In this document: positions 36,163 through 52,200 of the stretch, in pieces | How the letters are laid out: the number at the start of each line of letters is the position of its first letter | Position numbering within the stretch: the stretch's first letter is position 1 | Source: a virus | Taxonomy: Duplodnaviria > Caudoviricetes | Length of the DNA stretch: 64,000 nt | Virus record (IMG/VR): IMGVR_UViG_3300042295_001683 | Location: 1 to 64,000 of that record | Reading direction: 5' to 3' (one strand) | The notes under the pieces: model-generated | Database searches by the model: none | What the model was told of the DNA's origin: nothing | Seen by the model: the letters and a program-made list of their open reading frames with translations, nothing else | Position numbers and translations under genes: made by a program

Positions 36163-36987
36163 TTAGCTAAAAGTAATACTGTTTATTTCGATGTTGACCC
36201 AAACTTCAAACGGGATAGCCCCGACAGCATAGGAACCTGTAAATATTTGAGGGCTTTCGGTCAAAGTTTCGTCAAAAGTCCAGTTAACAGGCGGGGTAGA
36301 TTCTTCGGGAAACCCTTCTATTTTTATATAGCCAGTAATGGTAGTTACAATTGCAAAAGTTGAAGCAGTTAACAAAGGACTTTCAGTGCCCAAACTTATT
36401 TGTACACCCCTTTCTAGCGTTATTTCTATAGATGTATTTTCAAAAGCGATCGCATATTTAAGATAGGGGATTGAATTTCTAAAAATAGCTTCCCCTGTAT
36501 ATGCGTAATCGATATTATCTGAGGATATTACCTCTTCGCGTTCGGTCACTGGGATATAATCACCCTCCAAATTATAGCCAGCACCTTGGATACTATCAAA
36601 ACCTGTTAGTGTACTCCCCCCTGTGTAGGTAATGAGGACTTCATAAAACAGCCCAAGGAAAAATGCAGGGATTATAATATCGGGTTCAGTAGCTGATACT
36701 GCTACCAACCTATTCCTAGCGTCAACTCTTTGCAGTCCGCCTTGCTTATTTTTTCGCAAATATACTCGCTCACCAATTGGTAAAGGCGCGTTGCAAATCA
36801 GTTTAAATCCGCTATTTATTTCGCCATTTATTGCCACTCGATCCGTGCCATCAATAGGATCAATTCCCTGATAAGTTGCAAATGGATTTAGTAGCCCGTC
36901 ACGCTTTTCTTTTGCGTATTGATTACGCAATCGGTCGATTTGTGATTGACTAGCATTGCCAGCTACTGCATCAAAAAAATCTGTCAT
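36163..36987 (-). CDS. Putative tail-tip protein
   Basis: In the tail operon; N-terminus paralogous to the upstream 91-aa ORF (FF...ASQxQIxRL). Confidence 0.55.
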   Translation of the reverse strand: MTDFFDAVAGNASQSQIDRLRNQYAKEKRDGLLNPFATYQGIDPIDGTDRVAINGEINSGFKLICNAPLPIGERVYLRKNKQGGLQRVDARNRLVAVSATEPDIIIPAFFLGLFYEVLITYTGGSTLTGFDSIQGAGYNLEGDYIPVTEREEVISSDNIDYAYTGEAIFRNSIPYLKYAIAFENTSIEITLERGVQISLGTESPLLTASTFAIVTTITGYIKIEGFPEESTPPVNWTFDETLTESPQIFTGSYAVGAIPFEVWVNIEINSITFS

Positions 36988-37259
36988 TGTGGCGCTCTAA
37001 AGTCTGCAAAAGTTGTGTAACTATTTTTAGTAGTAGACAAAGAAACTTGCGACGGCGGCGCTCCAAAATTACCAAGATTGGCGGCTTGTATGCCGCCGTC
37101 AGCAGTCGTTACGATAAATTCACCTGTACTAGAATCAAACCCTGTTACCGAGCCAATCTGTATTGGTTGTGGTAAAGACGCTTTTTCGGATACAGATTTT
37201 AATCGATTGATTTGCGCTTGGGAGGCGCTTGCGATGACAGAAGTAAAAAAATTAGGCAT
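36984..37259 (-). CDS. Putative minor tail protein
   Basis: Coupled ORF in the tail operon. Confidence 0.55.
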   Translation of the reverse strand: MPNFFTSVIASASQAQINRLKSVSEKASLPQPIQIGSVTGFDSSTGEFIVTTADGGIQAANLGNFGAPPSQVSLSTTKNSYTTFADFRAPQ

Positions 37260-38079
37260 TTCCTAAACTCACTTTAAAATTACCAGATGGAATAATTAGT
37301 TCTTGACCAACAGTAATATTTTGGGTTGACACTGAACTAAAAACAATTAGATTAGTGGAATCAAACAAAGCGACAGAATTAAAGCCAGTAGCAGCGGCGA
37401 TCGCATTGCCATAATTTATATTATTTACAACCTGAATTTGGCGAGTATTACCTACAGTGCTAATTGCAGACCATCCACTGCTAGGGATTGAGAATCTCCC
37501 GCCTGTAGCAACTGTAGCTGTAATTTCAGTAATAGTGCCATTGGTAGCAATCGCTGTTGCAAGCGCTAATTGATTGGATGTTGGCGCTGTACCTGCGCTT
37601 GATCCTTTTAACCAATTTAGTTGCAAGTCTCTGGCGTAAATACTCCAGAATAGAATATCCAAATCAATGACTATATTGCCAGACGCTCTCGAAACACTAT
37701 CGCCACTACCAAAACTTAGAAGCTCTGTTACTCCTAATGCGTTACGGAATGGGAACCCGCCTAAAAAATTACCACTGGTAGAAGCGTCCCAAAAACCAAA
37801 GAAAGGCAGATTGGAGCCAGCCGCGATCGATGTCCCAAAATTCAAAGATGCTGTGCTAACAATCCTTCGATTATTCCCTACAGTAGCAGGAGTGCTAAAG
37901 TTACTGGAAGTGTACGAAGCTCGACCGCTAAAGTAAGTACCTGTTACCTCATTTGCGCCTGTAAGAGCGGGATCGGCGCTGTGAATACTTGCGTATAAAG
38001 TAGTAGGGGCTGTACCCGCGTTGGTTCCCTTAAAATGATGATTAAGGAATTTGTCGATAAAGTAGCTGGAAAGTCCCAT
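37252..38079 (-). CDS. Phage tail protein with a duplicated domain
   Basis: Two repeats (GTNAGTAPT...FGFWDASTSGNFL; GSSAGTAPT...ALFDSTNL). Confidence 0.7.
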   Translation of the reverse strand: MGLSSYFIDKFLNHHFKGTNAGTAPTTLYASIHSADPALTGANEVTGTYFSGRASYTSSNFSTPATVGNNRRIVSTASLNFGTSIAAGSNLPFFGFWDASTSGNFLGGFPFRNALGVTELLSFGSGDSVSRASGNIVIDLDILFWSIYARDLQLNWLKGSSAGTAPTSNQLALATAIATNGTITEITATVATGGRFSIPSSGWSAISTVGNTRQIQVVNNINYGNAIAAATGFNSVALFDSTNLIVFSSVSTQNITVGQELIIPSGNFKVSLGNA

Positions 38080-38089
38080 GATTTTTCAC

Positions 38090-39976
38090 CTATAAAGTAG
38101 CTAATCCGATCATTGTATTTGGCTTAATTGGATTGTAATTAATATACAAATCTGCTAAGCCGATCATTGTAGAAGGGGCGATCGGGTTGAAATTTATACG
38201 TAAATCTGCAAGCCCGATCATATTAAAATTGCCTAACGTAATCGCAACGGGGCGCGATATTACCGTAGGGGTGCTAGCGGGGGCTGTACCAACTTCGATA
38301 CCGTTAAAAACTAACCATGCTTCTGTCCCATTTAATCCCCATTTAATGCAATCTAATTTTAAGTAATAAATTAAATCTGCGTCTGTCACCGCTACATCCG
38401 CAAAAGGCTTAAAAGCACTACTTAAAGCTGTGTCAGTAATCGCGCCGCCAAATTGCTGACCATAAGCACGCCCTGATAATATGCGATTAAATCGAGAGCC
38501 ATAATCAACTAATTGAGACTGATCAACTGTGTAGGGTACATCTATTGTTCTTTGCCTTGGTCGGTACGGATCGGCGGCTAATTGCTGTGCAAATATTTCT
38601 GCTTTTAGCTGTACTTCTTCTGTAGTGTTTGTGCTTGCATCACCAAAATTTGTAGGTGGGCCAGACGTATCTTTATCGTCGCTAAAGTTTGCCGCTGTAA
38701 ATAGCACAGTAGGATTTTGATCGCCTAATGCCGTCCCTTTAAAAATTACTCCTGCTGGTTCATGTCGAGTATAAGTTTTAATCCATTTTTGCGATCCTGT
38801 GTTTACCCATTCATAATCTTCTCTTTTAGCCGTAATTAGTACTGAAGGATTTTGATCGCCAAAAGTAGTTCCTTTTATAATTACCCCTGCTGGTTGAAAA
38901 GATGTTACAGTTTGAGCCGTAACAATCCCATTGACAAGAGTATAAGTATTTATGGATTTGTCAGATATAAATAGCACAGTAGGATTTTGATCGCCTAATG
39001 CCGTCCCTTTAAAAAGTACCCCTGCTGGTTCGCGTGTTTCTATGGTTTTTTCAAAAAATGTTGAACTTATCTCTGATGTGGTTATTGTCCTTTTAGCCGT
39101 AAATAACGCGGTAGGATTTTGATCTCCAAAAGTAGTCCCTTTAAAAAGTACCCCTGCTGGCTGTGTGTCAATTACTTCGCTAGGTGCGGTGTCTACAGGT
39201 ATTATTTCTTTTACCGTACCTGTAACTATTAATTTTTCAATTGGTTGTTCTGCGATATCACCGATCGCGTCCCATAATTTTTCGTCAGAGCCAATTATAT
39301 AAGAAGCGATAGCACTGCCAGAATAGATGGCACTGATAGGCTCTGCGATTACCGTACCAGCGCTATTGCATCGCAAATAGTACCCTGCACTATCAGCGAT
39401 CGCCCCTGCAAATCCAATAAAATTACCAGTTTGCTTTGGCAGTGGATAGGCGATCGGATAGGGGATAGAGTCAATCGAATTAGCAACGTCGATATAGTTA
39501 AGGATATTTGTGATTACGGTATTTCTTGCTAATGGTGTACCCGCCGTAATACCAGATATATCTTGATTTGGTTCGGGTGGAAAATTCTCTAAAGCTAATC
39601 GACAGCCAATTTCCAAAGATAATTCTAATATGCCATCCATATTCCTTTTTGGTTTTTGAGGCATTTTTAGCAAATGCAAAGCTTGCCCACTACAAGGCAG
39701 ATAAGTAAGCGTTCCTGATGTATTTGCAGTTCGGATCGTGACTAGTTGACCCCGTTTCCATTGACTAGGGTTAAGTCTAGGATTAGGTGAACTTGGCACG
39801 GTTGAATCGTAGCGAGAAATTTTAAGATTAATGGAGCCTGTGACTGGCATTAATCCAGTCCCAACCTCATATTCTGGATAACCCAAAATTATTCCAGAAT
39901 CAAAGCTAATCCAGTTAGTCCAATTTTGCGATCCTATAATTAATTCGCATCTGCGAGATGAGAGATTAAGCGTCAT
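38090..39976 (-). CDS. Putative tail hub/baseplate protein with internal repeats
   Basis: Four PAGV(L/I)(F/I)KGTxxGDQNPxxL repeats and three MIGLA repeats; position in the tail operon. Confidence 0.65.
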   Translation of the reverse strand: MTLNLSSRRCELIIGSQNWTNWISFDSGIILGYPEYEVGTGLMPVTGSINLKISRYDSTVPSSPNPRLNPSQWKRGQLVTIRTANTSGTLTYLPCSGQALHLLKMPQKPKRNMDGILELSLEIGCRLALENFPPEPNQDISGITAGTPLARNTVITNILNYIDVANSIDSIPYPIAYPLPKQTGNFIGFAGAIADSAGYYLRCNSAGTVIAEPISAIYSGSAIASYIIGSDEKLWDAIGDIAEQPIEKLIVTGTVKEIIPVDTAPSEVIDTQPAGVLFKGTTFGDQNPTALFTAKRTITTSEISSTFFEKTIETREPAGVLFKGTALGDQNPTVLFISDKSINTYTLVNGIVTAQTVTSFQPAGVIIKGTTFGDQNPSVLITAKREDYEWVNTGSQKWIKTYTRHEPAGVIFKGTALGDQNPTVLFTAANFSDDKDTSGPPTNFGDASTNTTEEVQLKAEIFAQQLAADPYRPRQRTIDVPYTVDQSQLVDYGSRFNRILSGRAYGQQFGGAITDTALSSAFKPFADVAVTDADLIYYLKLDCIKWGLNGTEAWLVFNGIEVGTAPASTPTVISRPVAITLGNFNMIGLADLRINFNPIAPSTMIGLADLYINYNPIKPNTMIGLATL

Positions 39977-40052
39977 ACAGCTAACCCTCCATCAAATAAA
40001 GTTAGCTGCCCTTTTGGTGCTGCTTTTGGTTTTTTAGTTTTCACAGGTGCGA

Positions 40053-40784
40053 TCATATCTTAACCCCTGTCTCTTGCAACTCAAACACTGCCATCACATT
40101 ACCAACCCCCGTATCTGGGCTAAACGTTGGCTCAATAGGCATTTTTACCTGTAACTTAGGGTAATAATTTACCCCGCCGTTTCGCTGGAAGGGCGTGCCA
40201 ACAGATGAACGGGTTTTAGTTGACGATGTTTTCCCCTCTTCAAAATACAGTGTGATTTCGTCAGTCAACTCTAAGTATGGCGAACCTGTTAAAGTCTGAG
40301 CACGCCGTATATTATTAGCTGTAGACCACATTGCGCTTAACTTTAGTGAATCAGCGATACTAACTTTTGCTTGAATATTGTATTGTTGCGGATCTTCAAA
40401 ACTAATGCCCGTATCGATGAAATTTCCGTTTACGCTAAAAGTCCCATTTCCTGATAACCGAGAACTTTGGCGGGGCGGGGGAGAATCAGAACTAAAATTC
40501 CTGAATACAACACTCAGATAAACGCGGATCGAGTGCGTACCACTTCCACCGCTAAGACTTATAGCCGATCCCCCTTGCGTAGCTGACACGGTAATAGTCG
40601 AGCCTACACTCACGACATAATAGCTAGTATTAAGTGCTAGACCCGTTGGCAATGTGCCTGTGGTAGTAAAGCGCACGATATCGTCAACCGCAAATACTTG
40701 CGTGAATGGTGTTATGGCGCTACCACTAAAAGTAAAAGTATAGCTACGCCCAAAATATACGAGTGTTAAGTCGCCAACAGCCAT
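40053..40784 (-). CDS. Putative distal tail protein
   Basis: DDIVRFTTTGTLPTGLALNTSYYV...SATQGGSAI insertion domain typical of tail proteins. Confidence 0.6.
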   Translation of the reverse strand: MAVGDLTLVYFGRSYTFTFSGSAITPFTQVFAVDDIVRFTTTGTLPTGLALNTSYYVVSVGSTITVSATQGGSAISLSGGSGTHSIRVYLSVVFRNFSSDSPPPRQSSRLSGNGTFSVNGNFIDTGISFEDPQQYNIQAKVSIADSLKLSAMWSTANNIRRAQTLTGSPYLELTDEITLYFEEGKTSSTKTRSSVGTPFQRNGGVNYYPKLQVKMPIEPTFSPDTGVGNVMAVFELQETGVKI

Positions 40785-40945
40785 GAGTGAGTTAGGGGAT
40801 TTTGATTAATTATCGCACATCACAAAAATAGTACTTGACAAATAATATTAGTGTGTAGTATATTGATTTACATCAGGACACAACACACCCGCAAACGCCG
40901 CAACCTGATAGCGGTACTCAGTTAAAGAGGGGCTGAGAGAAAGAA

Positions 40946-41473
40946 ATGGGATGGATTCACGCAGGTAACAGTGAAAGCACTAGTGATGGCGGTGCTGGCT
41001 ACACAAGAAACGCGGCGGCTGTCCGTGACATCGTGAAACATCACGATGTTGACGAGAAAACAGCATGGGCGCTAGTAGCTTTGTTTTCGTGGCAGAAAAA
41101 CACCACGATCCCTGATCAGGTGGCAGACAGTGACTATGTAAGAAAGTGGATCGAATTCCCCTACTTTCAGGCTTTTCTTCCCGTATTTTTGAAATACGGA
41201 TGGACTTCCAATGTCGAAAGATTCTTGGAGTCGTGGATATACCACAATCAGGATTTCCATCAACTGATGGAAAAGTACTTCCCTGAGATCGCTGCACCCG
41301 CCCCCGCACCTGTTCAATCTGAATGGGTTGACTATGAGGCTTTGTACGAAGCAAAGCACAATGTCAACCTCCGCGACAAAGCGGAAAATGACGAAAACTG
41401 GTACATGAATGAAGTGTACCCCCTTAGTCTAAAAGATTGGGCTAAGGTGCAACTAGAAGCAGTTAGCTTTTAG
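40946..41473 (+). CDS. Hypothetical acidic accessory protein
   Basis: Downstream of promoter TTGACA(40835)-18-TATATT. Confidence 0.65.
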   Translation: MGWIHAGNSESTSDGGAGYTRNAAAVRDIVKHHDVDEKTAWALVALFSWQKNTTIPDQVADSDYVRKWIEFPYFQAFLPVFLKYGWTSNVERFLESWIYHNQDFHQLMEKYFPEIAAPAPAPVQSEWVDYEALYEAKHNVNLRDKAENDENWYMNEVYPLSLKDWAKVQLEAVSF

Positions 41474-41481
41474 GCTAGGCA

Positions 41482-41673
41482 ATGGTAAACCGACCTGTAG
41501 GCAGACCGCGAAGTAGCGATCGCATCAGGAAACAATTTTTGCTTACTCAAAAGCACATTGATATTCTTGAGGCAATCGCTATAAAACAGACTCTTGTAAC
41601 CTCGCAAGGTTCTTATAAAGGTCAGCCAAATATCAACGCGGCGATCATTTGGTTGATTGAAAATTATCAATAA
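41482..41673 (+). CDS. Small AT-hook/RHH-like regulator
   Basis: RPVGRPRSSD arm; paralog of 43303-43497 (shared KGxPNI). Confidence 0.65.
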   Translation: MVNRPVGRPRSSDRIRKQFLLTQKHIDILEAIAIKQTLVTSQGSYKGQPNINAAIIWLIENYQ

Positions 41674-41735
41674 AAAAGAGTTCATTCAAGGTTAAACATA
41701 TAAAAAGTATGTAGTTCTATTTGGAGATTAAAATT

Positions 41736-41966
41736 ATGACTAAGATTGAAGTTGTTGAAGCGATTAACCAAGCATCTAAAGCTTGGGAGGATGACTACGA
41801 AGCAATGAAAGCTTTGTTTATTCCAGTGTTTAACTTCATCAAGAGCGATGTAGACTTCCGCTCGTTTGTCCCTTGGTATCACAACTACTTCTCTAACAAC
41901 AGAGAGGTCAATGACACTACTGTTGTCAAGTTCATGACTATGACAGCAGCGGTTCACGAGTGCTAA
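41736..41966 (+). CDS. Small accessory protein
   Basis: GGAG RBS; MTKIEVVEAINQASKAWED N-terminus shared with the 42122 ORF. Confidence 0.65.
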   Translation: MTKIEVVEAINQASKAWEDDYEAMKALFIPVFNFIKSDVDFRSFVPWYHNYFSNNREVNDTTVVKFMTMTAAVHEC

Positions 41967-41968
41967 CC

Positions 41969-42547
41969 CATTACCCAATAGTCTAGCCATAGTGCTACGT
42001 TATAAGGCGATCGCGCGATCGCCTTTTTTGTTGGATAAATTAGTTGTAAATAGTACTTGACAAATAATATTTAAGCGTTTAATATTATATTCAAGGTTAA
42101 ACATACAAAAGGAGCAAGACCATGACTAAGATTGAAGTTATTGAAGCGATTAACCAAGCATCTAAAGCTTGGGAAGATGTATACTATATTGTTGTCTGTC
42201 GATACATGACAAATAGGAAATACGGGGGCTTAGTAAGAACTTACAGCTATTTTTACGAAGGCCCGTCACTAGAAAGAGCTTTTGTAAATGCACAAGATGC
42301 GTTTAAGGAAAGAGATGCAAAGGTTACTTTAGTGACGCTATCTCATGCCAATTCTTTTCTTGGGGTAGAAACCGAACTAAGCAAAGAAGCTGTTGTCTAA
42401 CAGATCATTACCCAATAGTCTAGCCATAGTGCTACGTTATAAGGCGATCGCGCGATCGCCTTTTTTGTTGGATAAATTAGTTGTAAATAGTACTTGACAA
42501 ATAATATTTAAGCGTTTAATATTATATTCAAGGTTAAATATACAAAA
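41969..42547 (+). repeat. 142-bp direct repeat (terminator + promoter unit) flanking one gene
   Basis: 41969-42110 vs 42406-42547 with one mismatch; contains the hairpin AAGGCGATCGCGCGATCGCCTT+T-run and TTGACA-17-TAATAT. Confidence 0.9.
42122..42400 (+). CDS. Small accessory protein with a chimeric N-terminus
   Basis: AAGGAG RBS; first 19 codons nearly identical to the 41736 ORF. Confidence 0.65.
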   Translation: MTKIEVIEAINQASKAWEDVYYIVVCRYMTNRKYGGLVRTYSYFYEGPSLERAFVNAQDAFKERDAKVTLVTLSHANSFLGVETELSKEAVV

Positions 42548-42563
42548 AACAAAGGACAAACAA

Positions 42564-42776
42564 ATGACAAAAAAATTGTTCGGGTATTGGGAAGAAGACA
42601 TGGATGGGAGCACTTGCGGATACTTCGTAGTATCCGCATACCAACCAGAATTTTTTGCAGATTGCGAAGAAAATTTTAACGATGAGCATGAGCTTGTCGG
42701 AGCGTGGTGTGACAGCCATGCTTTGAAAACCAGGATCAAAGATCTTGGTTTGGATTTGGAAGTTTCAGAGGATTAA
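42564..42776 (+). CDS. Small highly acidic protein (anti-defence candidate)
   Basis: 70 aa, D/E-rich, first gene after the repeated promoter. Confidence 0.6.
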   Translation: MTKKLFGYWEEDMDGSTCGYFVVSAYQPEFFADCEENFNDEHELVGAWCDSHALKTRIKDLGLDLEVSED

Positions 42777-42787
42777 GGTAAAAAAAT

Positions 42788-43306
42788 ATGTACGCATTTG
42801 ACAGAGACGGAGTATTGGTGGGTGAGCTAGGCAATTTCGCTGCCAGTCACCCGAAAAACTACAAGGGCGCTGAGATGCCCCTTATCAAAGAGGTGCTAGC
42901 CAAAGTACCGCCTCATTCGATCATTATCAGTAATCAAGCTGGCATTGATCGCGGCTATACCACACTCAAAGTGGTACAAGCTCAATTTGATTGGCTCATG
43001 GCGCAGCAGCCTAATTTTATCGGGGCTTTCTTTTGCCCTGATGAAGGGGAAAGTTGCTGGTTTAAGTTTTTTTGGGCAGACGAATGGACAGAGCAGTTAG
43101 CGATTGCCCCATACTTCAGAAAGCCTAATATAGGCTTGGGAGACTCCGCCAACGTGTATCTAAATCATTATGGGCTTGGCCAGATCACCCATTACATAGG
43201 AGATCTTTCTGGCAACCCCGCCTATGCTGAGGGTAGAGACAGCGATCGCATCTTTGCGCAAAATCTGGGCTGTGAGTATTTGGATGTGAATGATTTTTTA
43301 GCTTGA
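42788..43306 (+). CDS. HAD-family phosphatase (polynucleotide 3'-phosphatase/GmhB-like)
   Basis: AFDRDGVL, ISNQAGI, FCP, RKPNIG, YIGD...SDRIFA. Confidence 0.85.
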   Translation: MYAFDRDGVLVGELGNFAASHPKNYKGAEMPLIKEVLAKVPPHSIIISNQAGIDRGYTTLKVVQAQFDWLMAQQPNFIGAFFCPDEGESCWFKFFWADEWTEQLAIAPYFRKPNIGLGDSANVYLNHYGLGQITHYIGDLSGNPAYAEGRDSDRIFAQNLGCEYLDVNDFLA

Positions 43307-43497
43307 GCCTACAGGAACGCCGCCCTGTAGGCAGACCACGAAGTAGTGATCACTATGCTCAATTAAATTTACGTTTGCCAATGGCAATAATTGAGAAGAT
43401 GAGAGCGATCGCCCTATCTGAAGGATTTATCACTCAGATAGGCAAGCACAAAGGAGAGCCAAATATTAGCGGATGGCTCTCTAATAAATATAAGTAG
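43303..43497 (+). CDS. Small AT-hook/RHH-like regulator
   Basis: RPVGRPRSSD, QLNLRLP; paralog of 41482. Confidence 0.65.
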   Translation: MSLQERRPVGRPRSSDHYAQLNLRLPMAIIEKMRAIALSEGFITQIGKHKGEPNISGWLSNKYK

Positions 43498-43738
43498 CTC
43501 CTCTCTATGCTATATTTTGATTGCGTTAAAAATTTGGCTGATCTAGATCCTAAGGAGCTAAGGAGAACCGAAAAGCTAAGATTTGTGGATTTGTAATGAT
43601 TTTTTGAGAGTTTGAAGGCGATCGCGAGGTCGTCTTTTTTTGTGGGTAAAATTATTTTTAAAACATGGTTGACATTACTAACGTAATCAACTATATTTAA
43701 ACACATCAGGAAAACGCAACACGCAAGGAAACAAAGCA

Positions 43739-44179
43739 ATGACTACACTACTAGGAATCACAGATGAGAATTTAGGTTGCGCTTGCTGCGGTCGTACGGA
43801 TTTAAAGCGTTATGCAGTTATTCAAGATAATGAAGGCGAAATTGCTACTTACGGTAGTGACTGCGCTACAAAAATCTTAGGTAGAAAAATTTCTACTCAA
43901 AGAAATCTACCTAAGATTCAAACTGAAGACATCAAAAACATTACTCCTTTTGTAGAAGTAACTGTTTATAAAATGCATATCAGCCGACGTTACAACTTTG
44001 TAACCCGAAGCTATGAATGGGGATTAACCCTTCCTGTCAGCCCTAAACAAGTTTTAAAAACACTCAAAGAAGACTACGAATATTACGTTGAAGAGAATAT
44101 TCAAAACCGTCCCCTTGATGCTATTAAAACTGCCATTAATCTTTTAACTGAATACACGACTCAATATGCCCAAACCTAA
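43739..44179 (+). CDS. Cys-containing accessory protein
   Basis: CACCGRTDLK...YGSDCA; promoter TTGACA(43669)-17-TATATT. Confidence 0.65.
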   Translation: MTTLLGITDENLGCACCGRTDLKRYAVIQDNEGEIATYGSDCATKILGRKISTQRNLPKIQTEDIKNITPFVEVTVYKMHISRRYNFVTRSYEWGLTLPVSPKQVLKTLKEDYEYYVEENIQNRPLDAIKTAINLLTEYTTQYAQT

Positions 44180-44387
44180 CCCCGCAAACCCATACCATTG
44201 CGATCGCCCTATGCGTCGCAATGGTAAACAAGCCAAGTCAGGGGCAGTGCAATATCGCTGCAAATGTGGCTTTACCTGTACCGATGGCGATCGCCCCGCA
44301 CACCGCCCCCTATTAGGTGATGCGCCTTTGACGCAAGTTGAGCGTAATCGTAGGTATAGAGCTAAGAAGAAAGCTAATTTAAATTAG
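44166..44387 (+). CDS. InsA-like zinc-ribbon DNA-binding protein
   Basis: HCDRPMRRNGK...QYRCKCG; GDAPLTQVERNRRYR; paralog of 59127-59396. Confidence 0.65.
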   Translation: MPKPNPANPYHCDRPMRRNGKQAKSGAVQYRCKCGFTCTDGDRPAHRPLLGDAPLTQVERNRRYRAKKKANLN

Positions 44388-44462
44388 TTGCAAATAGTAG
44401 TTGACAAATACAGGATATCGATCAATAATAGATCGTTGAGTTAAACAAGCAAGGCAAAAACA

Positions 44463-44783
44463 ATGACACATTCTTTAGATGAAAAACAACCAACTCTTGA
44501 CAAGCTTATTGCAAGCCATCCAATGTTTGAGGAGCTAAAAACTATTATTGATTCTTTGATCTCAACTCGATATAAAAAAGTTAGAAAACTAGCTGGTCAA
44601 TCGTGGAAAGGCTACAGGTCAAATGCTCAGTATTTGAGTGAAGTCACTAAAAACAACAATCTTGGCAATAAAATTGCTGCTATGCAACGTCAAATCTTGG
44701 TTGATATTGATTTACTAGATGAAACTGGTTTTGCGTTTTTTAGAAACTATTCTGTTGACTGGGATAAAGTTAGAGCTTGGTAA
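44463..44783 (+). CDS. Hypothetical accessory protein
   Basis: After promoter TTGACA(44401)-17-AATAAT. Confidence 0.6.
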   Translation: MTHSLDEKQPTLDKLIASHPMFEELKTIIDSLISTRYKKVRKLAGQSWKGYRSNAQYLSEVTKNNNLGNKIAAMQRQILVDIDLLDETGFAFFRNYSVDWDKVRAW

Positions 44784-44784
44784 T

Positions 44785-44997
44785 ATGCCTAAATCACGCA
44801 CCGAAATCTATCGCGATTGCTATCTCAAGCGTACAGCAGACAAACTCCGCTACTACTGTACGCAATGCGATCGCCAACTCAGATCAGACTCACCTCTCAC
44901 TATTTGCCGCGCCTGTTGGCTTAAAACGGATGATGGCAAGCTATACATGCGACTGAAGCAAGCGGAATCAAGAGCTAAAAAAGTAGTAAAATATTAA
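44785..44997 (+). CDS. Small basic zinc-finger protein
   Basis: CTQC...CRAC; likely start MPKS at 44785. Confidence 0.6.
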   Translation: MPKSRTEIYRDCYLKRTADKLRYYCTQCDRQLRSDSPLTICRACWLKTDDGKLYMRLKQAESRAKKVVKY

Positions 44998-45058
44998 TGC
45001 GATCGCGGATGCTAGTCCCGATCGCGTGATCAACCTTATCCATTAATCGCAGGTCAAT

Positions 45059-45919
45059 ATGACAAGTTTAACTCAATTTGCATTTAATTCTCAACAGGTT
45101 CGTATTGTTTCCATTAATAACGAGCCTTGGTTTGTCGCTCAGGACGTATGTGACATTTTAGATATAAGGAATGTCAGCAAGGCTTGTAACCCATTAAAAG
45201 ATCGCGAAAAGCAAGTTTTAAATTTGCATGAGATGGGTATAACTTCAAGTGATGATCCAGACACCACAAGGCTTTTAGCGGTTTCAGAGTCTGGTTTGTA
45301 CCGCTTAACCATGAAATCTCGCAAACCTCAAGCTGAACCTTTTCAGGATTGGGTATGTGAGCAAATCTTGCCAATCATCCGCAAAACTGGCAAGTATGAG
45401 TTAGCCCCATCTCAACCCGCACTACCTCAAAACTATATTGAGGCTCTAGAGGCACATCTACAATCTGAGAAAGATAAAAAGGTACTTGCTGAAGCTAACC
45501 AGAAATTGATCGCCGCCAATCAATCCCTAGAAATCGAAGTACAGACTTTAGAACCAAAAGTCGATCGCTATGATTTGATTTTGGCTACCGATGGATGGAT
45601 GACTGGGGAAGAGATTGTTAAGCAGTTGAATATTTCCAAGTTTTCTGTTCGCAAGCTTTACGACATTTTGCGTAAGGAGAAAGTACTATTTAATAGCGAT
45701 GGCACTAATTTACCTTATGCCAGTTGGCAAAATGAAGGGCTTGCTACGATTCGTGATGGTCAATGTTTTGATGGACGCATGAGATTTAGCCCTGTATTCT
45801 CTTGGAAGGGATTGGATCGCATTCTTGACCTATTGCGTAAACATCAAGTTATCCCAAGGGATAAGCAGTATCGATTTAACTTTGATTCTGACAAAATCGT
45901 AGCGATGAAGAGGGCTTAG
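45059..45919 (+). CDS. BRO-N / KilAC phage antirepressor
   Basis: QVRIV...EPWFVAQDVCDIL, SESGLYRL, SRKPQAEPFQDWV...LPIIRKTGKY, LPQNYIEAL. Confidence 0.92.
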   Translation: MTSLTQFAFNSQQVRIVSINNEPWFVAQDVCDILDIRNVSKACNPLKDREKQVLNLHEMGITSSDDPDTTRLLAVSESGLYRLTMKSRKPQAEPFQDWVCEQILPIIRKTGKYELAPSQPALPQNYIEALEAHLQSEKDKKVLAEANQKLIAANQSLEIEVQTLEPKVDRYDLILATDGWMTGEEIVKQLNISKFSVRKLYDILRKEKVLFNSDGTNLPYASWQNEGLATIRDGQCFDGRMRFSPVFSWKGLDRILDLLRKHQVIPRDKQYRFNFDSDKIVAMKRA

Positions 45920-45921
45920 TT

Positions 45922-46557
45922 ATGTTTGACAAAGTTTACACAACTGAAGAGCTAACTAAAATTCTAGAAATAGAGAGAATGGCTTGCGTCAAAGGTCAGG
46001 GCACATTCCCTATGCCTGATAATGCCGATGAAATTGCAAAGCAAACACCACTAGGCTCTATTTTGGGGGCGCAAAGATTATTTGAGGTTGGTTGTTATCA
46101 TGAGTTTCGCGATCAAGTTCAAAAGTATCAAATTGAAAATAATATTTCTGGGCTTGAAGTTGATGTTTGTATTATTGGTGACAAGCTCTATAGATTCCCT
46201 ATCCCTGTCTGCCAATTAGAGCTAACTAAGGATGATTACCAAGTCTTGAAGTTAGCCAAAGACGCTGTAGTTGACGCATTCCTTAGTGCTGTTGATGAGC
46301 TTACCTATTTGAGCTTTAGCCATGAAGACAAATCTCATGCTCAATTTGATATCGAAACTACAAGCCAATATATTAGACACCTTTCTGAGTTTTGCGACTG
46401 GGCAGAAATTACAGTCGCTAAAGAATTTGAAATAACTCTTGTTCTTGGCTATGGTGATTATCACGAATCTGCATATATTGCTGAGCATTCAGAAGCTGCA
46501 AAATATTCTGATTCTATGTATTTCTGTGCTGCTAAAGCTTGCAAAATTAACGGGTAA
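45922..46557 (+). CDS. Hypothetical protein
   Basis: 211-aa ORF coupled to the antirepressor. Confidence 0.65.
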   Translation: MFDKVYTTEELTKILEIERMACVKGQGTFPMPDNADEIAKQTPLGSILGAQRLFEVGCYHEFRDQVQKYQIENNISGLEVDVCIIGDKLYRFPIPVCQLELTKDDYQVLKLAKDAVVDAFLSAVDELTYLSFSHEDKSHAQFDIETTSQYIRHLSEFCDWAEITVAKEFEITLVLGYGDYHESAYIAEHSEAAKYSDSMYFCAAKACKING

Positions 46558-46613
46558 ACCAATGTCTATCAAAATCAAATTCTCTTTGTTGCCTGAGTTG
46601 AGAAGAGCATATG

Positions 46614-46914
46614 CTTCCAATCAGCCGATCACTTAACCAGAAGTTTCACCACTATCGCCTCTCTTCCAATCAGCCGATCGCTTAACCAAAAGTTTCACCA
46701 TTCTGAGTTTCCAAAAATTGCAAATAACCTTGCCTTCCAATCAATTGATCGTCTAACCACTAGTTTCACCATGAACTAGAGCGCCGCTTTACAGCCTGTA
46801 TCGGTACTTCCAATCAGCCGATCGCTTAACCAAAAGTTTCACTGGACAAAATGACAATTTTATATGTCAGCTACCTTCCTTCCAATCAGCCGATCGCTTA
46901 ACCAGAAGTTTCAC
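46614..46914 (-). CRISPR. CRISPR mini-array: five 36-bp repeats, four spacers
   Basis: Repeat GTGAAACTTCTGGTTAAGCGATCGGCTGATTGGAAG (minus strand) at 46879-46914, 46807-46842, 46734-46769 (degenerate), 46663-46698, 46614-46649; spacers 36, 37, 35 and 13 nt from the leader end. Confidence 0.95.
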
Positions 46915-48643
46915 CTAACAGATCCCAAAAACCAAGCTGAGAGCCAATATTAGGATCGATTTGCGCGGATCGCTTACGAGATTGCAATTTAGAGTCGGCT
47001 TTAGATAGTGATTTTAAATCTTGCCATAGCTCAAAGTCTTGTGGTGATTGGTTTTCAGAGTTTGCGCGAGTGGTTAGGTTGCGATCTAGCTGTAAATCAT
47101 TGTCTGGTAAGGGCTTAAGCTTATCAGCTTCCAATCTTTTATCAGTACTATTTACAGCCCCGCTTTCGCGGTTGATTGCGGGAGTTGTTTCTCCTCCCGA
47201 TCCTTTCTTACTCTTGCGAGTCTTACTCGGTTGGCGCTTCTTCCCATGCGTTGCATGATCCACGCCCTTAAATTCCCCCGATGAAGCGGGGTATGGTATC
47301 AGTACCAAGCCTTTAAAAGCAACATTACGGATAACGGTTGAGGCGTTGTTATCTGCGTTGTCACCATGACCACAATTCAAGCATTTAAAAACAGCTTGAG
47401 ATGGTCGAAACTTTTCGGAATAGTAGCCACACTGAGAGCAACCTTGAGAAGTGTGCGGTGCGGGTACTTTCACAAATATTCTTTCTGATGCTTTAGATTT
47501 AGTCTCTAGCATCGTCTTTGTTTTACCGATCGCCACATCATGAAGCGATTTATTTAAACCAGCTTTAGCAGCCGATCCGTTGGGTAGAAAAGCGCCATTT
47601 TCACCAGCTTTCGCCTTTGGTGCGCGTACCATATTTTTAACTTTGGTATCTTCAATGGCGATGCTTTGATATTCACTTACATATTTTGAAGTGAGCTTAT
47701 GGATAAAGCGATCCCTTTGCCTAGCGATTTTAAGATGCGCTTTAGCTAGTTTAGAGCGTTTAGCTTTTAGCCTGTTAGAGCCATCTTTTGAGCGAGAGAT
47801 AGAGCGCTGAATACGAGCTAATTTCTTAGCTTGCATCTTTGCGTAACGCTTAGATTTGTGTAGTCTCCCATCACTATCTGCAATAGGAGCGACTACACCA
47901 AAATCTAAACCTACTTCTTGCTTTTTTGCTGGTTTAACGGGCTTTACATCTACCGTGCTAGTGAATTGCACATAATAACCATCAGCTTTTTGGACGATGC
48001 GTACAATCGTATGATTGCCAGCATAGCGACGGTAGAATCCCTTGCATTTGATTTGTCCTAGTCTTGGATAATCAATTAATGCATTGTCATTACCCAAGGG
48101 CAAAATATTAACGTATATCCGACCGTTGCCATTAGAAAAGCTTTCTAATTTATCAGCTTTCTTTTTGTAACGTGGTCTGCCTTTTTTTCCCTTGCGGTAC
48201 TGAGTCCATGCATCAATTAGGTTATCCACAACAGATCGCCGTGATTCGCCATCAATAGAGTGTAGAAAATCAGGACACCGCATATTAGCGATAAAGCGAT
48301 AATTTTTAACGTGCTTAAATGGCTCTTCAATATCCCGATGTTTGCGGATGTCGCATTTATCAGGATAGTAAGCACAGCAAAGCCCGTATTGATTATCAGG
48401 ATTTACATACTCAATCCCGTCGATTTTGCATGATTTTCGCCATTGCCATACTTCAGGACTATACTCTGCCCATTCTTGTTTTGCCCTCCAATAACGTTGC
48501 TGATCTTCCTCAAGCAGACTTAAACCAACATTCCATACCCATTTAAGTTGAGTAAGCCACAAATCAATTTGTGTGCTTTGCTCAATCGTGGGAGACAACT
48601 TAAATTCAGTTATCTTTTTAGTAGTGGCTTCATTGCTAGTCAT
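46898..48643 (-). CDS. TnpB-family RNA-guided nuclease, type V-U2 (C2c8)-like Cas12
   Basis: EFKLSPTIEQSTQIDLWLTQLKWVWNVGL N-terminus; RuvC VGLDFG / IAIED / NADNNA; zinc finger CSQC...CLNC; adjacent array; no tnpA. Confidence 0.85.
   Translation of the reverse strand: MTSNEATTKKITEFKLSPTIEQSTQIDLWLTQLKWVWNVGLSLLEEDQQRYWRAKQEWAEYSPEVWQWRKSCKIDGIEYVNPDNQYGLCCAYYPDKCDIRKHRDIEEPFKHVKNYRFIANMRCPDFLHSIDGESRRSVVDNLIDAWTQYRKGKKGRPRYKKKADKLESFSNGNGRIYVNILPLGNDNALIDYPRLGQIKCKGFYRRYAGNHTIVRIVQKADGYYVQFTSTVDVKPVKPAKKQEVGLDFGVVAPIADSDGRLHKSKRYAKMQAKKLARIQRSISRSKDGSNRLKAKRSKLAKAHLKIARQRDRFIHKLTSKYVSEYQSIAIEDTKVKNMVRAPKAKAGENGAFLPNGSAAKAGLNKSLHDVAIGKTKTMLETKSKASERIFVKVPAPHTSQGCSQCGYYSEKFRPSQAVFKCLNCGHGDNADNNASTVIRNVAFKGLVLIPYPASSGEFKGVDHATHGKKRQPSKTRKSKKGSGGETTPAINRESGAVNSTDKRLEADKLKPLPDNDLQLDRNLTTRANSENQSPQDFELWQDLKSLSKADSKLQSRKRSAQIDPNIGSQLGFWDLLGETSG
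46915..47140 (-). promoter_or_regulatory. Cyanobacterial-type CRISPR leader embedded in the nuclease ORF
   Basis: Two CGCGCAAA motifs on the minus strand (~47061-47068 and ~46960-46967), as recalled for cyanobacterial leaders. Confidence 0.55.
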
Positions 48644-48707
48644 ATACTGATAGTATCATAGTATTGATACTATTGACAAGCTTTTAATACAAGCTTTTAA
48701 TTGTGAT
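48644..48707. promoter_or_regulatory. Divergent promoters with operator repeats
   Basis: Inverted repeat ATAGTATCA-6-TGATACTAT (48650-48673); tandem ACAAGCTTTTAAT x2 (48676-48701); TTGACA(48673)-17-TTTAAT. Confidence 0.7.
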
Positions 48708-48917
48708 ATGGCTTTAAGAAATATAGTTAAAGAATTTCTGGAAGAAAGAAAAATAACCGCTTATCAGTTCGTCAAAGAAACGGGGATAAGCGGTACAACT
48801 GGCTATGAGTTAGCGCGTAACCCTTGGCATATACCATCTACAGGCTCAATCGCTAAAATCTGCGATACCTACAAAATTCAACCATCTGAAATTGTTGTTT
48901 GGGTAGGGAATGAATAA
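48708..48917 (+). CDS. Cro/C1-type HTH regulator divergent from the nuclease
   Basis: VKEFLEERKITAYQFVKETGIS...IAKICDTYKIQPSEIV. Confidence 0.85.
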   Translation: MALRNIVKEFLEERKITAYQFVKETGISGTTGYELARNPWHIPSTGSIAKICDTYKIQPSEIVVWVGNE

Positions 48918-48982
48918 CAGCCGCATAAGCTAAAATCATGAAGCAAGGTTAAACACTATCTTTAGCGTTGAGTCAGCCCCTT

Positions 48983-49024
48983 GCAACAAAAAGCCGATCG
49001 CTTGTTGGTCGGCTTTTTTGTTGC
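48983..49024. terminator. Intrinsic terminator hairpin
   Basis: AAAAAGCCGATC-GCTTGTT-GGTCGGCTTTTTT. Confidence 0.75.
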
Positions 49025-49293
49025 GTAATCTCCTATACAAAAACCTGCGAGATACTTGCAATAATTAACCAACGTATCAAGTAAGAATATTATGCAAGTT
49101 TGCGATATTTGCGGCGCTCAAGAAACTAACGGTAATATCTCCTTATCAGCCGACCGCAATCGGCATATATCTGTATCTAATAAGGATTTGCATTATACAA
49201 GATGTTGCCAGATCGCTATCAGTCGAGGTCGCAAAGGTTGTTTGAATAGATTAGGAAAAGTTATAGATCTTTCTACTCTGTTTGGTGTTTAGA

Positions 49294-52200
49294 TTACATA
49301 CTCAACGCCGCCGATCGTGCCATCTCCCTTTGAATTTGCAAAGCGATCTCAGTAGCATTACCGCTACCAGTCGTCACATTTACGTTATAGGTTTTGTTAC
49401 CGCCCGAATTGTTCAATACGTTCTTAGTCTGATTTGCAGGTAGGACATTAGAGCCTCTAGGCAATGTCACAAGCTCAGCACCTCGTTCTCCTACCAATGC
49501 AATACCGCCGCGGAAGTTTGTAACACCACTAGCAAAAGCAGGAACTTTTCCTACCCCTACAGCGCCGCTAAGTGGTGAAGCCCCTTTGGCGACTGATAGA
49601 GCGCTGATAATTTGCTGTGCAGACTTACCTAAAATTTGCTGTATCTCAATCGCAGACGCTTTATCTAGCGCCCTTTGTTGCTCTTTAAATACTCTCTCAC
49701 GTTCGATTTTCTGATCCTCAAACGCCCGATCAAGCGCTAGCTCTTTCTCTTTTTGAGCTAACTTAATCGTCTCTAGCTCAGCATCAGCAGCTTTCCTGAG
49801 TGCTAAGTCCTCGTTAGTTTGCTGTAGTTTTAAAGCACGTTCTTCATCGGCTTGCTGCTTTTTAATTGTTGCAAGTTCACCTCTCTCGAAAGCTAATTTA
49901 CTAGCCTGTAATTCAGCTTCGATTCTTTGTTTTTCAGGTTTGAGTACAGTGTTCTCAAAGTTCAACTTAGCAGCGTTTTGCTCAGCATCAAAAGCCAACT
50001 TAGCAGCGTTTAATTCAGCTTCAAAAGCCTTGTCACTAGCTCTCTTGACCTCTGTGCGCTTTACATCTTCAGCTTTATCGATTTCAAGCTGCTTGGCTTT
50101 GTTGGCTTTCTCTAATTCGTCCAATGCAAGTTGTACTTTTTTCTGCTCTTCACCCGTAGCGATCGCGGATACTTGAGCTATTTGCTTGGCTTGAGCAACT
50201 AACTGTTCTTGGCTTTGTACTCCGCCCTGTCCTTGGGTAGCTGCTTGTGCTCTAATGCGATTCTCTTCTTCGATTTGCGCTGCAATCCTAGCCCGATCTT
50301 CGGGCTTGGCAGTAGCGATCGCGCCTTCATTACTGATTAATTGCTTAGCTTTTGACAAAGCCTCAGATGCTTGTTTATCACGCTGAGCGCGTTGCGCTGC
50401 AAAAGCTTCATCGTCTTTACGTTGCTTTTCTGCTCTCTGTTCCTTAAGTGCATTTTGCTTGTCATCAAAATCCTGCTTGAGTTTGTTTAGTTTCTCCTCG
50501 TTTGCACGTTTCTTGGCATCAAGAGCATCCTCAAGTTGTAGTTTTTTGGCATTCTGAGCGTCGTCAAATGCGCGTTGCTTATCTTGTAAAGCTAGGGTTT
50601 GCTTTTCCTTTAGTACCTCTGTTTCTAGCGCTTGCTTGCGATCTAGCTCACCTTTTGCGAGTGCATTTTTTTCTTCAATTGCTTTGATTGCATTGGCATT
50701 CTCACGATCTCGCTTGGCTTTGGTGTCTTCAAAGGATCTCTTGATATTTTTTTCAGCGTCTTGGTTTTGGGCTTCCCTGATTCTTTCAGCTTGCTTGCGT
50801 TGTTCATCGGTTACTTCAGCTTCCTTTGCTGCTGTACTATTTACCGCAGCAATTCGATCTTCTAAAAGTTTTTTGCGTTTGGAGAATATTGCAATCTCAT
50901 TGTTTAGAAGTTTTTGTAAAGCAGGGTTATCAGAAGCGCCTTGAGCTTGCGCTTTCAAGGAATTAATAGCTAAATCAATATTTTCAACCTGCTCCTTGGT
51001 TTCTTTATTAAATTTCGCTACTCCTTCGGCACCCAATCTATTTTTAGCCCCTGTAGCGTCAATGGCTACACCGTATTTATTCAATACGTTGAGTGATTCG
51101 TCAAGGTCTTTGGTATATTCCTTTTGATTTTCAGCAAATTCAATTACTTCTTTTTGTCGCCCCCTTTGCGCCCCAAAAATATCAAATGTTGCGCCTTGTC
51201 TTCCTAATCCGTCGTCAGTAGTTTGCTCAGGTGGCGCTAGCTTACCGCGTAGCGCTTGTAATTCTGCTAATTTTTGCTTGTAATCCTGCAAGCTTTTTGT
51301 CGATTCCGAAACATTAAAAGCTGATGATAATTGCTTACCTACTGCAATTAGTGGAATCGCAGCAATAGCAATTAACCCCAATGGCGTTGTCAGTGCATAC
51401 GCCGCTACACTAGCAGCCGTGAGCGCACCTGTTAGCACTCCCGTACCTACAGCAAGTGCCCCTTGAGCGATCGCCGCTAATCCCGCTTTAGTGGTTAGCA
51501 GTGTAAAGGCATTACTAGCTAGGGTAGTCGCAAAGGTGAGGGCTTTAGTACCAAAAGCTGCAATACCAGCCGCCCCACCAAATAACTTTAACCCCTCAAC
51601 AAAAGCTGGAGCCGCCGCGCCGATCGCTGTAAGAGCCGCACCTAATGTAACAATACCGCCAACTAGTCCAATAATCGCGCCTAAACCTACTTGAATTGGT
51701 GCGGGTAATTGGTTGAATACATCAACAGCCGCGCCTACAACCGCTATTAATGGCGCAAAAGCTGTTTGTGTACCACGTCCTAAATTTACTAAAGCTTCAT
51801 TGATTTTGTTGATTGCTGTTGTTATTTTCCCTTCAGCAGATTTAGCAACAACATCAAAACCAATTTGCGCTTTGCCCGAAGCATTGCCAACAGCTACTAG
51901 ATTCTCATTAAAGTTCTTAAGGTCGTCGTTAAGTAAAGGGACAACAGCAGTTAAACCATCAATATCTGTAAAGATTTTAGATAGCTGACTACTGGTGGTT
52001 AAGCCAGCCACTTTTAATCGATTGAGTACACCTGTTAATCCTTCAGTTTTAAGCGTTGTAGCAGCGTTAGTGATCCCAATAGCCTTCAATGCTTCTTTTG
52101 CGGATTGCGTGGGCTTAACCAAGTTGACGATCGCCTGTCTAATACCACTAACCGCAGTCTCGGTTTTAACGCCTTTAATCGTAACGCTTGCTATGGCAGC

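Follow-up and report, generated by a model that had tools for sequence, protein, structure and literature searches.

A hypervariable island of short, exchangeable operons with Aca-like architecture and plausible counter-defence cargo in a freshwater cyanosiphovirus

What is the use of a row of small operons, each behind its own near-consensus promoter, whose contents change from one phage to its close relative? The question is raised by positions 40785 to 45058 of a virus record (IMG/VR IMGVR_UViG_3300042295_001683; Caudoviricetes), of which we analyzed the first 64 kb (hereafter the window) out of 73,403 bp (estimated completeness 95%; guanine-cytosine content 41.5%). The region is a hypervariable island of five short operons, lying between the tail-fibre genes and an antirepressor/Cas12 locus. 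An earlier sequence-only reading had seen in it an array of promoter, variable gene, and small DNA-binding gene, resembling the operons in which anti-CRISPR (acr) genes are followed by an anti-CRISPR-associated (aca) regulator. Our answer is that the island consists of self-regulated, exchangeable operons whose cargo is most likely counter-defence, an interpretation that we hold with slightly better than even confidence.

The HIP1 motif (GCGATCGC), whose enrichment is a hallmark of cyanobacteria, occurs 94 times where about one occurrence is expected, and one homolog of the small protein g7 (described below) carries the name of a Pseudanabaena metagenome-assembled genome. The phage is a freshwater cyanosiphovirus, probably with a Pseudanabaena-like host. 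In each of at least 18 lake-water DNA runs, drawn from 18 studies, 69% or more of the region's sampled words are present; the phage is common in lake water, and its variants therefore co-occur and can be compared. A blastn search of the region against GenBank phages returned a single 73-nucleotide (nt) match, at chance level.

The anatomy of the island follows from its promoters. All five TTGACA promoters of the sequence-only reading were recovered, on the plus strand like all island features given below, at 40835 (11/12 consensus positions), 42057 (10), 42494 (10), 43669 (11), and 44401 (11). They are the best-scoring sites of the region and are near-consensus sigma-70 promoters of the host type. 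A loose scan gave no enrichment (21 sites in 39000-47000 versus 20.5 +/- 4.2 in shuffled sequences); the strict pattern TTGACA-N16-18-TANNNT occurs 9 times in the window versus 2.57 +/- 1.60 expected, a count reached by 1 of 100 shuffles. Across the whole 73,403-bp record, TTGACA-N16-18-WAWWWT is found at 8 distinct places versus 0 for the reversed control, 5 of the 8 falling within 40835-44429.

Each promoter (P1 to P5) opens one unit. P1 (40835-40864; TTGACA-18-TATATT, type A1, spacer AATAATATTAGTGTGTAG, imperfect dyad) precedes g1 (175 amino acids, aa), g2 (63 aa), g3 (76 aa), and a terminator. Behind P2 (42057-42085) there is only g4 (92 aa) and a terminator, without a regulator gene, and P3 (42494-42522; type A2) is followed by g5 (70 aa), g6 (172 aa), g7 (64 aa), and a terminator. 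P4 (43669-43697; TTGACA-17-TATATT, type B), with the palindrome ATTACTAACGTAAT between its -35 and -10 elements, drives g8 (146 aa) and g9 (73 aa), and P5 (44401-44435; TTGACA-17-AATAAT, type C), with CGATC and GATCG arms around the -10 element, drives g10 (106 aa), g11 (70 aa), g12, and g13; in these last two units no terminator was detected. Open reading frames (ORFs) on the opposite strand (41470-41685, 41682-41990, 42437-42739, and 43434-43739) were dropped as real genes because the plus-strand ORFs sit behind promoters and before terminators and are conserved as proteins in relatives.

Between the units lie three terminators made of a hairpin and a T-run (at 42004, 42441, and 43614-43637), which we describe as HIP1-hairpin terminators. 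A 142-nt block of terminator, promoter, and leader is duplicated at 99% identity: copy 1 (41969-42110) comprises a 3' flank, the terminator 42004-42025 with its T-run, P2, a dyad, and the leader, and copy 2 (42406-42547) contains the terminator 42441-42462, P3, and a dyad. An Rfam scan of 40000-49500 found no known RNA family; two sub-threshold small RNA matches fall on terminator repeats (27.4 bits versus a gathering threshold of 55). That most promoters overlap inverted repeats holds for four of the five, the dyad at P1 being merely imperfect: AATATT-N9-AATATT lies at 42066-42086 and 42503-42523, ATTAC-N4-GTAAT at 43674-43687, and CGATC-N7-GATCG at 44419-44435. These palindromes draw their weight from their conservation in relatives and not from the statistics of a single genome.

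How stable is this arrangement? We recovered about 30 related viral or metagenome contigs with protein baits and ran 13 proteins of the region by tblastn against 27 loci. The genes g9, g11, g12, and g13 are kept in relatives at 63-100% identity (g11 at 83-100% across 12 related contigs). The cargo, on the other hand, turns over: 35 cassettes hold 30 cargo families, and the distinct cargo sets per number of cassettes are 2/3 for g2, 4/5 for g7, 7/12 for g9, and 7/13 for g11. In detail, g8 is kept solely in one near-identical relative and g10 in 3 contigs (3 of the 13 g11-carrying cassettes); the g5 position of contig L052 holds an unrelated 117-aa ORF; and the g4 unit is missing from the close relative L009/L028. 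The proteins of L009 are 95-100% identical, and this contig has an extra unit, in which two ORFs and a truncated g11-like gene, the latter ending at the terminator repeat, follow a B-type promoter in shifted form. Promoter, palindrome, and small basic gene thus stay together across relatives while the cargo is swapped, which bears out the acr-aca-like layout proposed earlier.

Lake metagenome contigs break at unit borders. In three contigs, all from one run, other sequence takes the place of g8 between P4 (43658-43701) and the first codon of g9 (44165/44166), and in a further metagenome contig the -10 element of P1 is fused to g2 at mid-gene, so that g1 is replaced; a joint of 40822 to 43504 is treated as weak because its shorter side measures just 29 letters. 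The joints at unit borders agree with a cargo that would be swapped by recombination at conserved flanks, and RecT is among the genes of the phage.

The guilt-by-association search with regulators as bait, suggested by the sequence-only reading, had a single positive outcome, at g7. A gene directly upstream of a g7-type gene could be read in 15 contigs: seven, including the window, have a g6-type phosphatase there, three (L010, L040, and L049) a Csx3/Crn3 gene, and the others an 80-aa ORF (2/15), a 133-aa ORF (2/15), or a 91-aa ORF (1/15). Judged by sequence the Csx3 assignments are firm, with Pfam E-values of 1.1e-26, 2.6e-24, and 1.1e-23 for L010, L040, and L049, 85.2 bits against the NCBIfam model "ring nuclease Crn3/Csx3" (cut-off 55.4), and 3.3e-15 against the solved Protein Data Bank (PDB) protein AF_1864. 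The cited sections of PMC7371418 and PMC12409355 describe Csx3/Crn3 as degrading cyclic tetra-adenylate (cA4), the messenger of type III CRISPR systems, and an anti-CRISPR role in the relatives would follow from this activity. The survey of 28,114 phage genomes in PMC12409355 reports AcrIII-1 in 36, Csx20 in 4, and Csx16 in 2, Csx3 being unlisted in the section cited. A tblastn search with the viral Csx3 gave zero matches in 50,697 GenBank phage records, and as an IMG/VR bait it retrieved just two already-known contigs, a single-protein query reaching close relatives only.

It is because these sister cassettes, with their g7-type regulator, carry a cA4 ring nuclease that we regard counter-defence as the most likely role of the island's cargo. 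The proposed reservoir of anti-defence proteins is thereby partly upheld: the relatives' cassettes contain Csx3/Crn3, and searches of Pfam, PHROGs, NCBIfam, and PADLOC assigned no cargo gene of the window to a known anti-defence, Acr, or defence family. The anti-defence role of the window's cargo is thus supported indirectly, by the Csx3 association and the cargo turnover, as plausible but unproven.

The expectation that the promoters drive small genes without known relatives was right for most of the cargo, which consists mainly of ORFans, and wrong for g6 (42788-43306), a HAD-IIIA/PNKP-type polynucleotide 3'-phosphatase of 172 aa. It matches Pfam PNK3P (PF08645) with 2.7e-7 and 30.9 bits (cut-off 22) and has the DxDG(T/V) nucleophile motif as FDRDGVL at residues 4-10. 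The NCBIfam models HAD-SF-IIIA and DNA-3'-Pase both score below their cut-offs (26.9 versus 107.65 bits for the latter), a PDB sequence search gave no match, and tblastn against phages found one match, at 27% identity in an unannotated record. One may speculate that g6, sitting in the slot used by Csx3, is an enzymatic counter-defence, for example by healing nuclease-cut RNA ends or attacking a phosphorylated signal.

Could the island simply be a generic array of early genes or morons, with cargo for host takeover, superinfection exclusion, or lysogeny decisions and with small proteins that repress at the early-to-middle switch? This is the main rival, and we regard it as a real possibility, if on the unlikely side. 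The units adjoin an antirepressor with Bro-N and KilAC domains, and the phage also encodes RecT and CI/Cro-type helix-turn-helix (HTH) genes. Variable moron regions beside tail-fibre genes are, moreover, common in temperate siphoviruses. Such roles could be open to the cargo, since only 12 of 75 cargo or neighbor proteins from relatives have a Pfam family (E <= 0.001) and 63 have none; the named ones besides Csx3 (DnaJ, Rha, AP2, GIY-YIG, DUF559, DUF1391, T5orf172, and a methylase) lie mostly outside the cassettes. However, host takeover does not obviously explain why 3 of 15 contigs have Csx3/Crn3 as the immediate neighbor ahead of a g7-type gene, and the very fast cargo turnover amid backbones of 90-100% identity suits arms-race genes better.

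If the operons regulate themselves, the small basic proteins are the obvious candidates, and all four that had been pointed out are present. They are g2 (41482-41673; 63 aa, isoelectric point (pI) 10.3), with an N-terminal RPVGRPR followed by a ribbon-helix-helix (RHH)-like body; g7 (43303-43497; 64 aa, pI 10.4), with a GRP motif and a predicted RHH dimer; g9 (44166-44387; 73 aa, pI 10.4), with a Cys/His zinc-ribbon-like fold and a basic C-terminal helix; and g11 (44785-44997; 70 aa, pI 9.7), with two CxxC pairs of the zinc-ribbon type. The small regulator-type proteins have pI values of about 9.4-10.4 versus 4.2-5.8 for the cargo proteins g1 and g3-g6. An HTH family was absent for g2, g7, g9, and g11 even at lenient E-values.

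The two proteins g2 and g7 are paralogs (42% identity) from a tiny family, which forms 13 clusters among 5.8 billion proteins and has 18 representatives (E <= 0.001) among 1.84 billion. G10, R11, and P12, inside RRPVGRPR, are invariant in 14/14 members, and the family has by sequence the GRP core with basic flanks that defines an AT-hook; the Pfam AT_hook model picks up 1/14 members (E 0.072). The Pfam models Arc (7/14), RHH_5 (6/14), and CopG (5/14) also appear, all below cut-off, and a g7-family profile found nothing meaningful among PDB sequences (E 0.13). The AlphaFold2 model of g7 (predicted local distance difference test, pLDDT, 76.7) places helices at 27-39 and 55-63. Modeled as a homodimer, g7 reaches an ipSAE interface score of 0.67 versus 0.00 for the best control, with contacts at least 93% alike between runs and a partner pLDDT of at least 76; that mark is attained by 20/30 proteins solved as same-chain pairs and by 1/23 solved as single chains. 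In the model, residues 18-25 of both copies run antiparallel, centered on residue 22. These lines are individually weak and all agree, and g2 and g7 look like AT-hook plus RHH-like proteins, so the label given to them earlier can be retained at the level of a prediction.

The zinc-ribbon candidates are less well anchored. In the g9 family C12 and C32 are invariant and C34 nearly so, and the model of g9 shows three short strands and the basic C-terminal helix (pLDDT 72.5). The "InsA-like" label lacks support: the model of the InsA N-terminal zinc ribbon (PF03811) picks up 1/15 members (E 0.062), and g9 is not that member. For g11, the ESM Atlas offers as nearest neighbors only viral clusters without a known function, and g9 and g11 are unrelated to each other (E 8.9). 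As a side observation, g9 measures 102 aa in several relatives (L031-L035 and P0032), owing to a 29-residue insertion in the zinc-ribbon region, after the first Cys and before the NGK motif.

Do the promoters and the small proteins travel together? Three promoter families, A (with A1 and A2), B, and C, are conserved across relatives. Type A is an AT-rich dyad with AATATT arms, which in L032 forms a perfect 22-bp palindrome. Its A1 variant (center AGTGTGTAG) stands ahead of g2-type genes in 5/6 cases, the sixth running off its contig; a P1-type promoter precedes the g2-type cassettes of L028, L016, L044, and L046. The A2 variant (center TTAAGCG(C/T)TTAA) stands ahead of g7-type genes in 9/10, the exception being the regulator-less P2 of the window. 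The type B palindrome ATTACTNNAGTAAT, allowing one mismatch, lies upstream of g9 in 10 of the 12 g9-carrying contigs, survives shifted by 7 nt in a second promoter context (L025/L031 type), and is missing from the promoter regions of 5 contigs that lack g9. Type C (CGATC/GATCG around an AATAAT -10 element) precedes g11 in 13/13 scored contigs with a full-length g11 (L036, with a 53% g11-type match, was left unscored), and a promoter of the P5 type is kept in nearly all relatives. Each promoter type thus appears mostly bound up with one family of small proteins encoded at its 3' side.

This coupling is also what speaks against a second rival, in which these promoters are not controlled by the small basic proteins at all: the palindromes would be bound by a CI/Cro-type HTH protein of the phage or by a host protein, g9 and g11 would be zinc ribbons with other roles, and variable genes would have inserted upstream of them. 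That neither g9 nor g11 significantly matches any DNA-binding family agrees with such a scenario, as do the type C promoters that exist without g11, and g11 may be merely the first conserved gene of its operon, with the conserved g12 and g13 following. However, the palindrome type tracks the small-protein family across contexts (B versus shifted B; A1 versus A2), all four proteins are strongly basic, and the divergence between g2 and g7 falls in what the model predicts to be the DNA-reading strand, matching a difference between their dyads. We therefore consider this rival improbable. The last one, that the units are toxin-antitoxin-like or abortive modules in which a toxin gene comes first and its RHH antitoxin second, serving to exclude superinfection or to maintain the element, is highly improbable: RHH proteins are a common antitoxin class, sub-threshold CopG_antitoxin (5/14) and BrnA_antitoxin (2/14) matches occur in the g2/g7 family, and the 4-nt overlaps of the g6/g7 (the g7 start overlapping the g6 stop in TTGA) and Csx3/g7-type pairs resemble those of coupled genes, but no cargo gene belongs to a toxin family in Pfam, PHROGs, or PADLOC, the g7 partners are a phosphatase and a ring nuclease (neither a known toxin), and one regulator family behind at least 5 unrelated upstream genes is atypical of cognate pairs.

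A number of observations nevertheless weigh against reading the island as self-regulated counter-defence operons. Counted inside this genome alone, the short palindromes do not exceed chance (ATTACTNNAGTAAT gives 5 matches versus 4.4 expected when up to two mismatches are tolerated), and in a genome rich in HIP1, CGATC arms should be frequent anyway. Two type C promoters come without g11: that at 11873 (minus strand of the window), whose unit ends in a different small basic protein, and that at L030 2986, whose unit has no small basic gene; a g7-type gene (70% identity) in L053/L054 lies behind a different consensus promoter. The coupling could reflect shared ancestry with insertions in between, and its counts are not independent events because the relatives form one phage group. 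At the protein level, the fold matches of g7 are all sub-significant: Foldseek gave no match at E <= 0.001 for the g7 or g9 model, and the first PDB match of g7 is 1myl, which we take to be the Arc repressor, at a non-significant E of 1.4. The g7 dimer score may reflect resemblance to RHH dimers, and because many of these have been solved the model is a likeness and not proof. Neither g9 nor g11 has a significant structural or family match. The four small basic genes were, moreover, said to end their units, and g11 does not: g12 (Ant) and g13 follow, with no terminator found in between. As to the cargo, g1, g3, g4, g5, g8, and g10 have no match in Pfam, PHROGs, NCBIfam, or PADLOC, no dedicated anti-defence library having been searched, and g6 is a member of a common enzyme family. 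Finally, RNA contigs of two metatranscriptomes touch parts of g1, g3, g5, g6, g7, and g10 without proving transcription; such contigs are uninformative on starts, strand, and real transcription, and the uncovered parts carry no meaning.

Taken as self-regulated counter-defence operons, the units would work as follows. Host RNA polymerase would fire the promoters of the P1-P5 type at entry, making the units immediate-early operons. The co-transcribed small protein would accumulate, bind the promoter palindrome as a dimer, and turn its operon off, with g2 and g7 acting on the AT-rich dyad types, g9 on ATTACTNNAGTAAT, and g11 on CGATC..GATCG. Orphan promoters of the same type (P2, and the minus-strand one at 11873) would respond to these proteins in trans. 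What lies between promoter and regulator is exchangeable cargo, which would be swapped via the conserved flanks. A fuller version of this proposal has counter-defence cassettes exchanged by recombination, with terminator-promoter blocks as the 5' and regulator genes as the 3' homology arms, three non-HTH regulator classes, about 30 cargo families that are new inhibitors, and Csx3/Crn3 and the PNKP-type phosphatase as new counter-defences; as a whole it seems to us rather unlikely.

How does the island compare with known systems? Its Aca-like architecture is supported. As in acr-aca operons (Aca1-Aca13, which are HTH autorepressors), a strong promoter with an inverted repeat is followed by small variable genes and then by a conserved regulator-type gene, and one regulator family stands behind many unrelated upstream genes (here five different ones behind g7-type genes in 15 contigs). 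The proposed shut-off by a co-encoded, palindrome-binding protein is what Aca repressors do. Unlike Aca1-Aca13, g2, g7, g9, and g11 have no detected HTH; furthermore, the window is without a known Acr, the host group is cyanobacteria, and the units stand head to tail with common terminator-promoter blocks.

A closer parallel is Aca14, described in the cited part of a preprint (bioRxiv 10.64898/2026.07.27.740549) as an RHH Aca whose gene accompanies that of the ring nuclease Csx20; it recognizes an AT-rich inverted repeat at the -10 element and extends its repression to a neighboring operon. Compared with g7 by that description, the likenesses would be an RHH-type dimer, an AT-rich repeat over the -10 element, the pairing with a ring nuclease, and the motif on neighboring operons. 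The ring nuclease here, however, is Csx3/Crn3 and not Csx20, and it is found in relatives and not in the window, whereas g2 and g7 come from a tiny family and have an N-terminal, AT-hook-like GRP motif. In archaeal viruses, shared strong promoters mark anti-defence genes, according to the section cited of PMC11065993. These early-promoter sets resemble the island in their many small unknown genes, a shared strong promoter with virus-specific regulatory sequence, and a putative Aca-like regulator; as described there, they use BRE/TATA promoters, mostly of single genes, and a winged HTH Aca8, whereas the island has sigma-70 promoters in three or more families, each with its own small protein. 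By analogy with AcrIII-1 and other viral ring nucleases (PMC12409355), the relatives' Csx3 would likewise degrade cA4 and blunt type III CRISPR signaling; AcrIII-1, Csx20, and Csx16 are the ones that the section cited reports from phages, unlike the Csx3 found here.

Among the remaining cargo genes, g1 (40946-41473; pI 4.9) is an ORFan whose homologs form just 6 clusters among 5.8 billion proteins. The third gene of unit 1, g3 (41736-41966), has an A2-type 5'-leader element ahead of it and no promoter, and g4 (42122-42400) is the sole gene of unit 2. The first 63 nt (21 codons) of g3 and g4 (41736-41798 and 42122-42184) are 94% identical and their 3' flank is common, the bodies being unrelated; one RNA contig fuses a g4-type start to the g3 body, and the pair looks like a cassette chimera made at common ends. 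Also in the island are g5 (42564-42776; pI 4.2), g8 (43739-44179), an ORFan whose ESM Atlas matches are only viral clusters of unknown function, and g10 (44463-44783). Pfam and PHROGs put names on just two genes of the region, g6 and g12 (45059-45919), the Bro-N/KilAC antirepressor of 286 aa, which is conserved together with g13 (211 aa; the pair spans 45059-46557). On the minus strand, the surroundings consist of tail-fibre-like genes (36163-40784), a TnpB/Cas12-like gene (46898-48643), and the tape-measure gene (49294-53229).

Similar units occur elsewhere in the record, all on the minus strand. A type C promoter (11845-11873) precedes a 99-aa ORF (11507-11806) and a 104-aa basic GGGRPKK protein (11200-11514); the promoter at 60477-60506 precedes 81- and 77-aa ORFs, a 170-aa DUF262/GmrSD_N protein, and an 89-aa g9 paralog (59127-59396; 44% identity, E 9e-14); and the promoter at 63954-63982 precedes a DUF1391 gene (63737-63919) and a 58-aa basic protein (63568-63744). 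The recurrence of the layout at 11200-11873, 59127-60506, and 63568-63982 is thus confirmed as far as promoter and small basic gene go. Neither the 58-aa nor the 104-aa protein gives a Pfam RHH signal, and the former has no Pfam match at all, so their status as regulators rests on reading by eye. The DUF1391 gene (Pfam 2e-24) stands right behind its consensus promoter and has a copy in a relative (L036, 5854-6036; 8.7e-25). A fourth promoter family comprises three near-identical minus-strand copies (59070-59099, 60477-60506, and 60908-60937) with TTGACA, a common spacer with AGTACT, and TACTAT or TAGTAT; it drives small ORFs upstream of virion-assembly genes, and one of its units is the one that ends in the g9 paralog. 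In L053 (2466-3686) and L054, a single operon, preceded by a perfect TTGACA-17-TATAAT promoter that carries a TAACA..TGTTA repeat, contains both a g9-like zinc-ribbon gene and the g7-type gene.

The record also contains CRISPR-related loci of its own. Directly 3' of the TnpB-like gene lies a CRISPR-like array (46609-48643 for array and gene) of five repeats of about 36 nt with start spacings of 49, 71, 73, and 72 nt, the last repeat overlapping the end of the ORF; in a k-mer scan of the record it is the sole array-like repeat set. The 581-aa protein matches Cas12u2 (1.9e-104) and Cas12f (5.8e-103) in PADLOC and C2c8 (type V-U2) in NCBIfam (2.2e-87; 294 bits versus a cut-off of 350); a type V-U2 system is known from cyanophage CL131, according to the cited part of PMC6293099. 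One relative has the same five-repeat array and two others have single repeats. The repeat had 0 matches, exact or degenerate, in 185,579 species genomes, hence no host is named from it, and one spacer searched in IMG/VR matched just the relative's own array. A metatranscriptome contig of run X19, 404 nt long, agrees with the second spacer over 33 nt (46700-46732), with 3 differences and unlike flanks, and could be a protospacer in another element.

On the minus strand at 11989-15978 there is a type IV CRISPR-Cas-like module with no array detected. It consists of Cas11 (15454-15978; PADLOC 5.7e-13), Csf2/Cas7 (14253-15461; 4e-43), Csf3/Cas5 (13574-14260; 4.9e-47), a PAPS-reductase/CysH-like gene (12918-13586), a cupin (12569-12928), and Cas6 (11989-12576; TIGR02807, 7.6e-30); a CysH-like partner is typical of type IV-B. 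Other conflict-related-looking genes are a D12 adenine methyltransferase (979-1890), a DUF5131 gene (2572-3327), a C5 cytosine methyltransferase (23204-24115), and the DUF262/GmrSD_N gene (59389-59901), whose 170-aa product, inside its small cassette, matches PADLOC NsnA (6e-15).

What, then, does the island mean for cyanophages? Hardly any of their anti-defence genes are known, even though type I-D and type III CRISPR systems abound in cyanobacteria. Candidate genes can be looked for in lake metagenomes with the three promoter/regulator signatures as a search key, and these signatures tie viral Csx3/Crn3 to an Aca-like regulator. The cited part of the Aca14 preprint (bioRxiv 10.64898/2026.07.27.740549) raises the question of whether anti-defence operons are also controlled by DNA-binding folds beyond HTH and RHH, for which g9 and g11 are zinc-ribbon candidates. 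If the fuller version of the proposal is true, their families would be the first zinc-ribbon Aca-type repressors, the roughly 30 unknown cargo families would count as new inhibitors of defences in cyanobacteria, Csx3/Crn3 as a new ring-nuclease anti-CRISPR of viruses, and the PNKP-type 3'-phosphatase as a new kind of enzymatic counter-defence.

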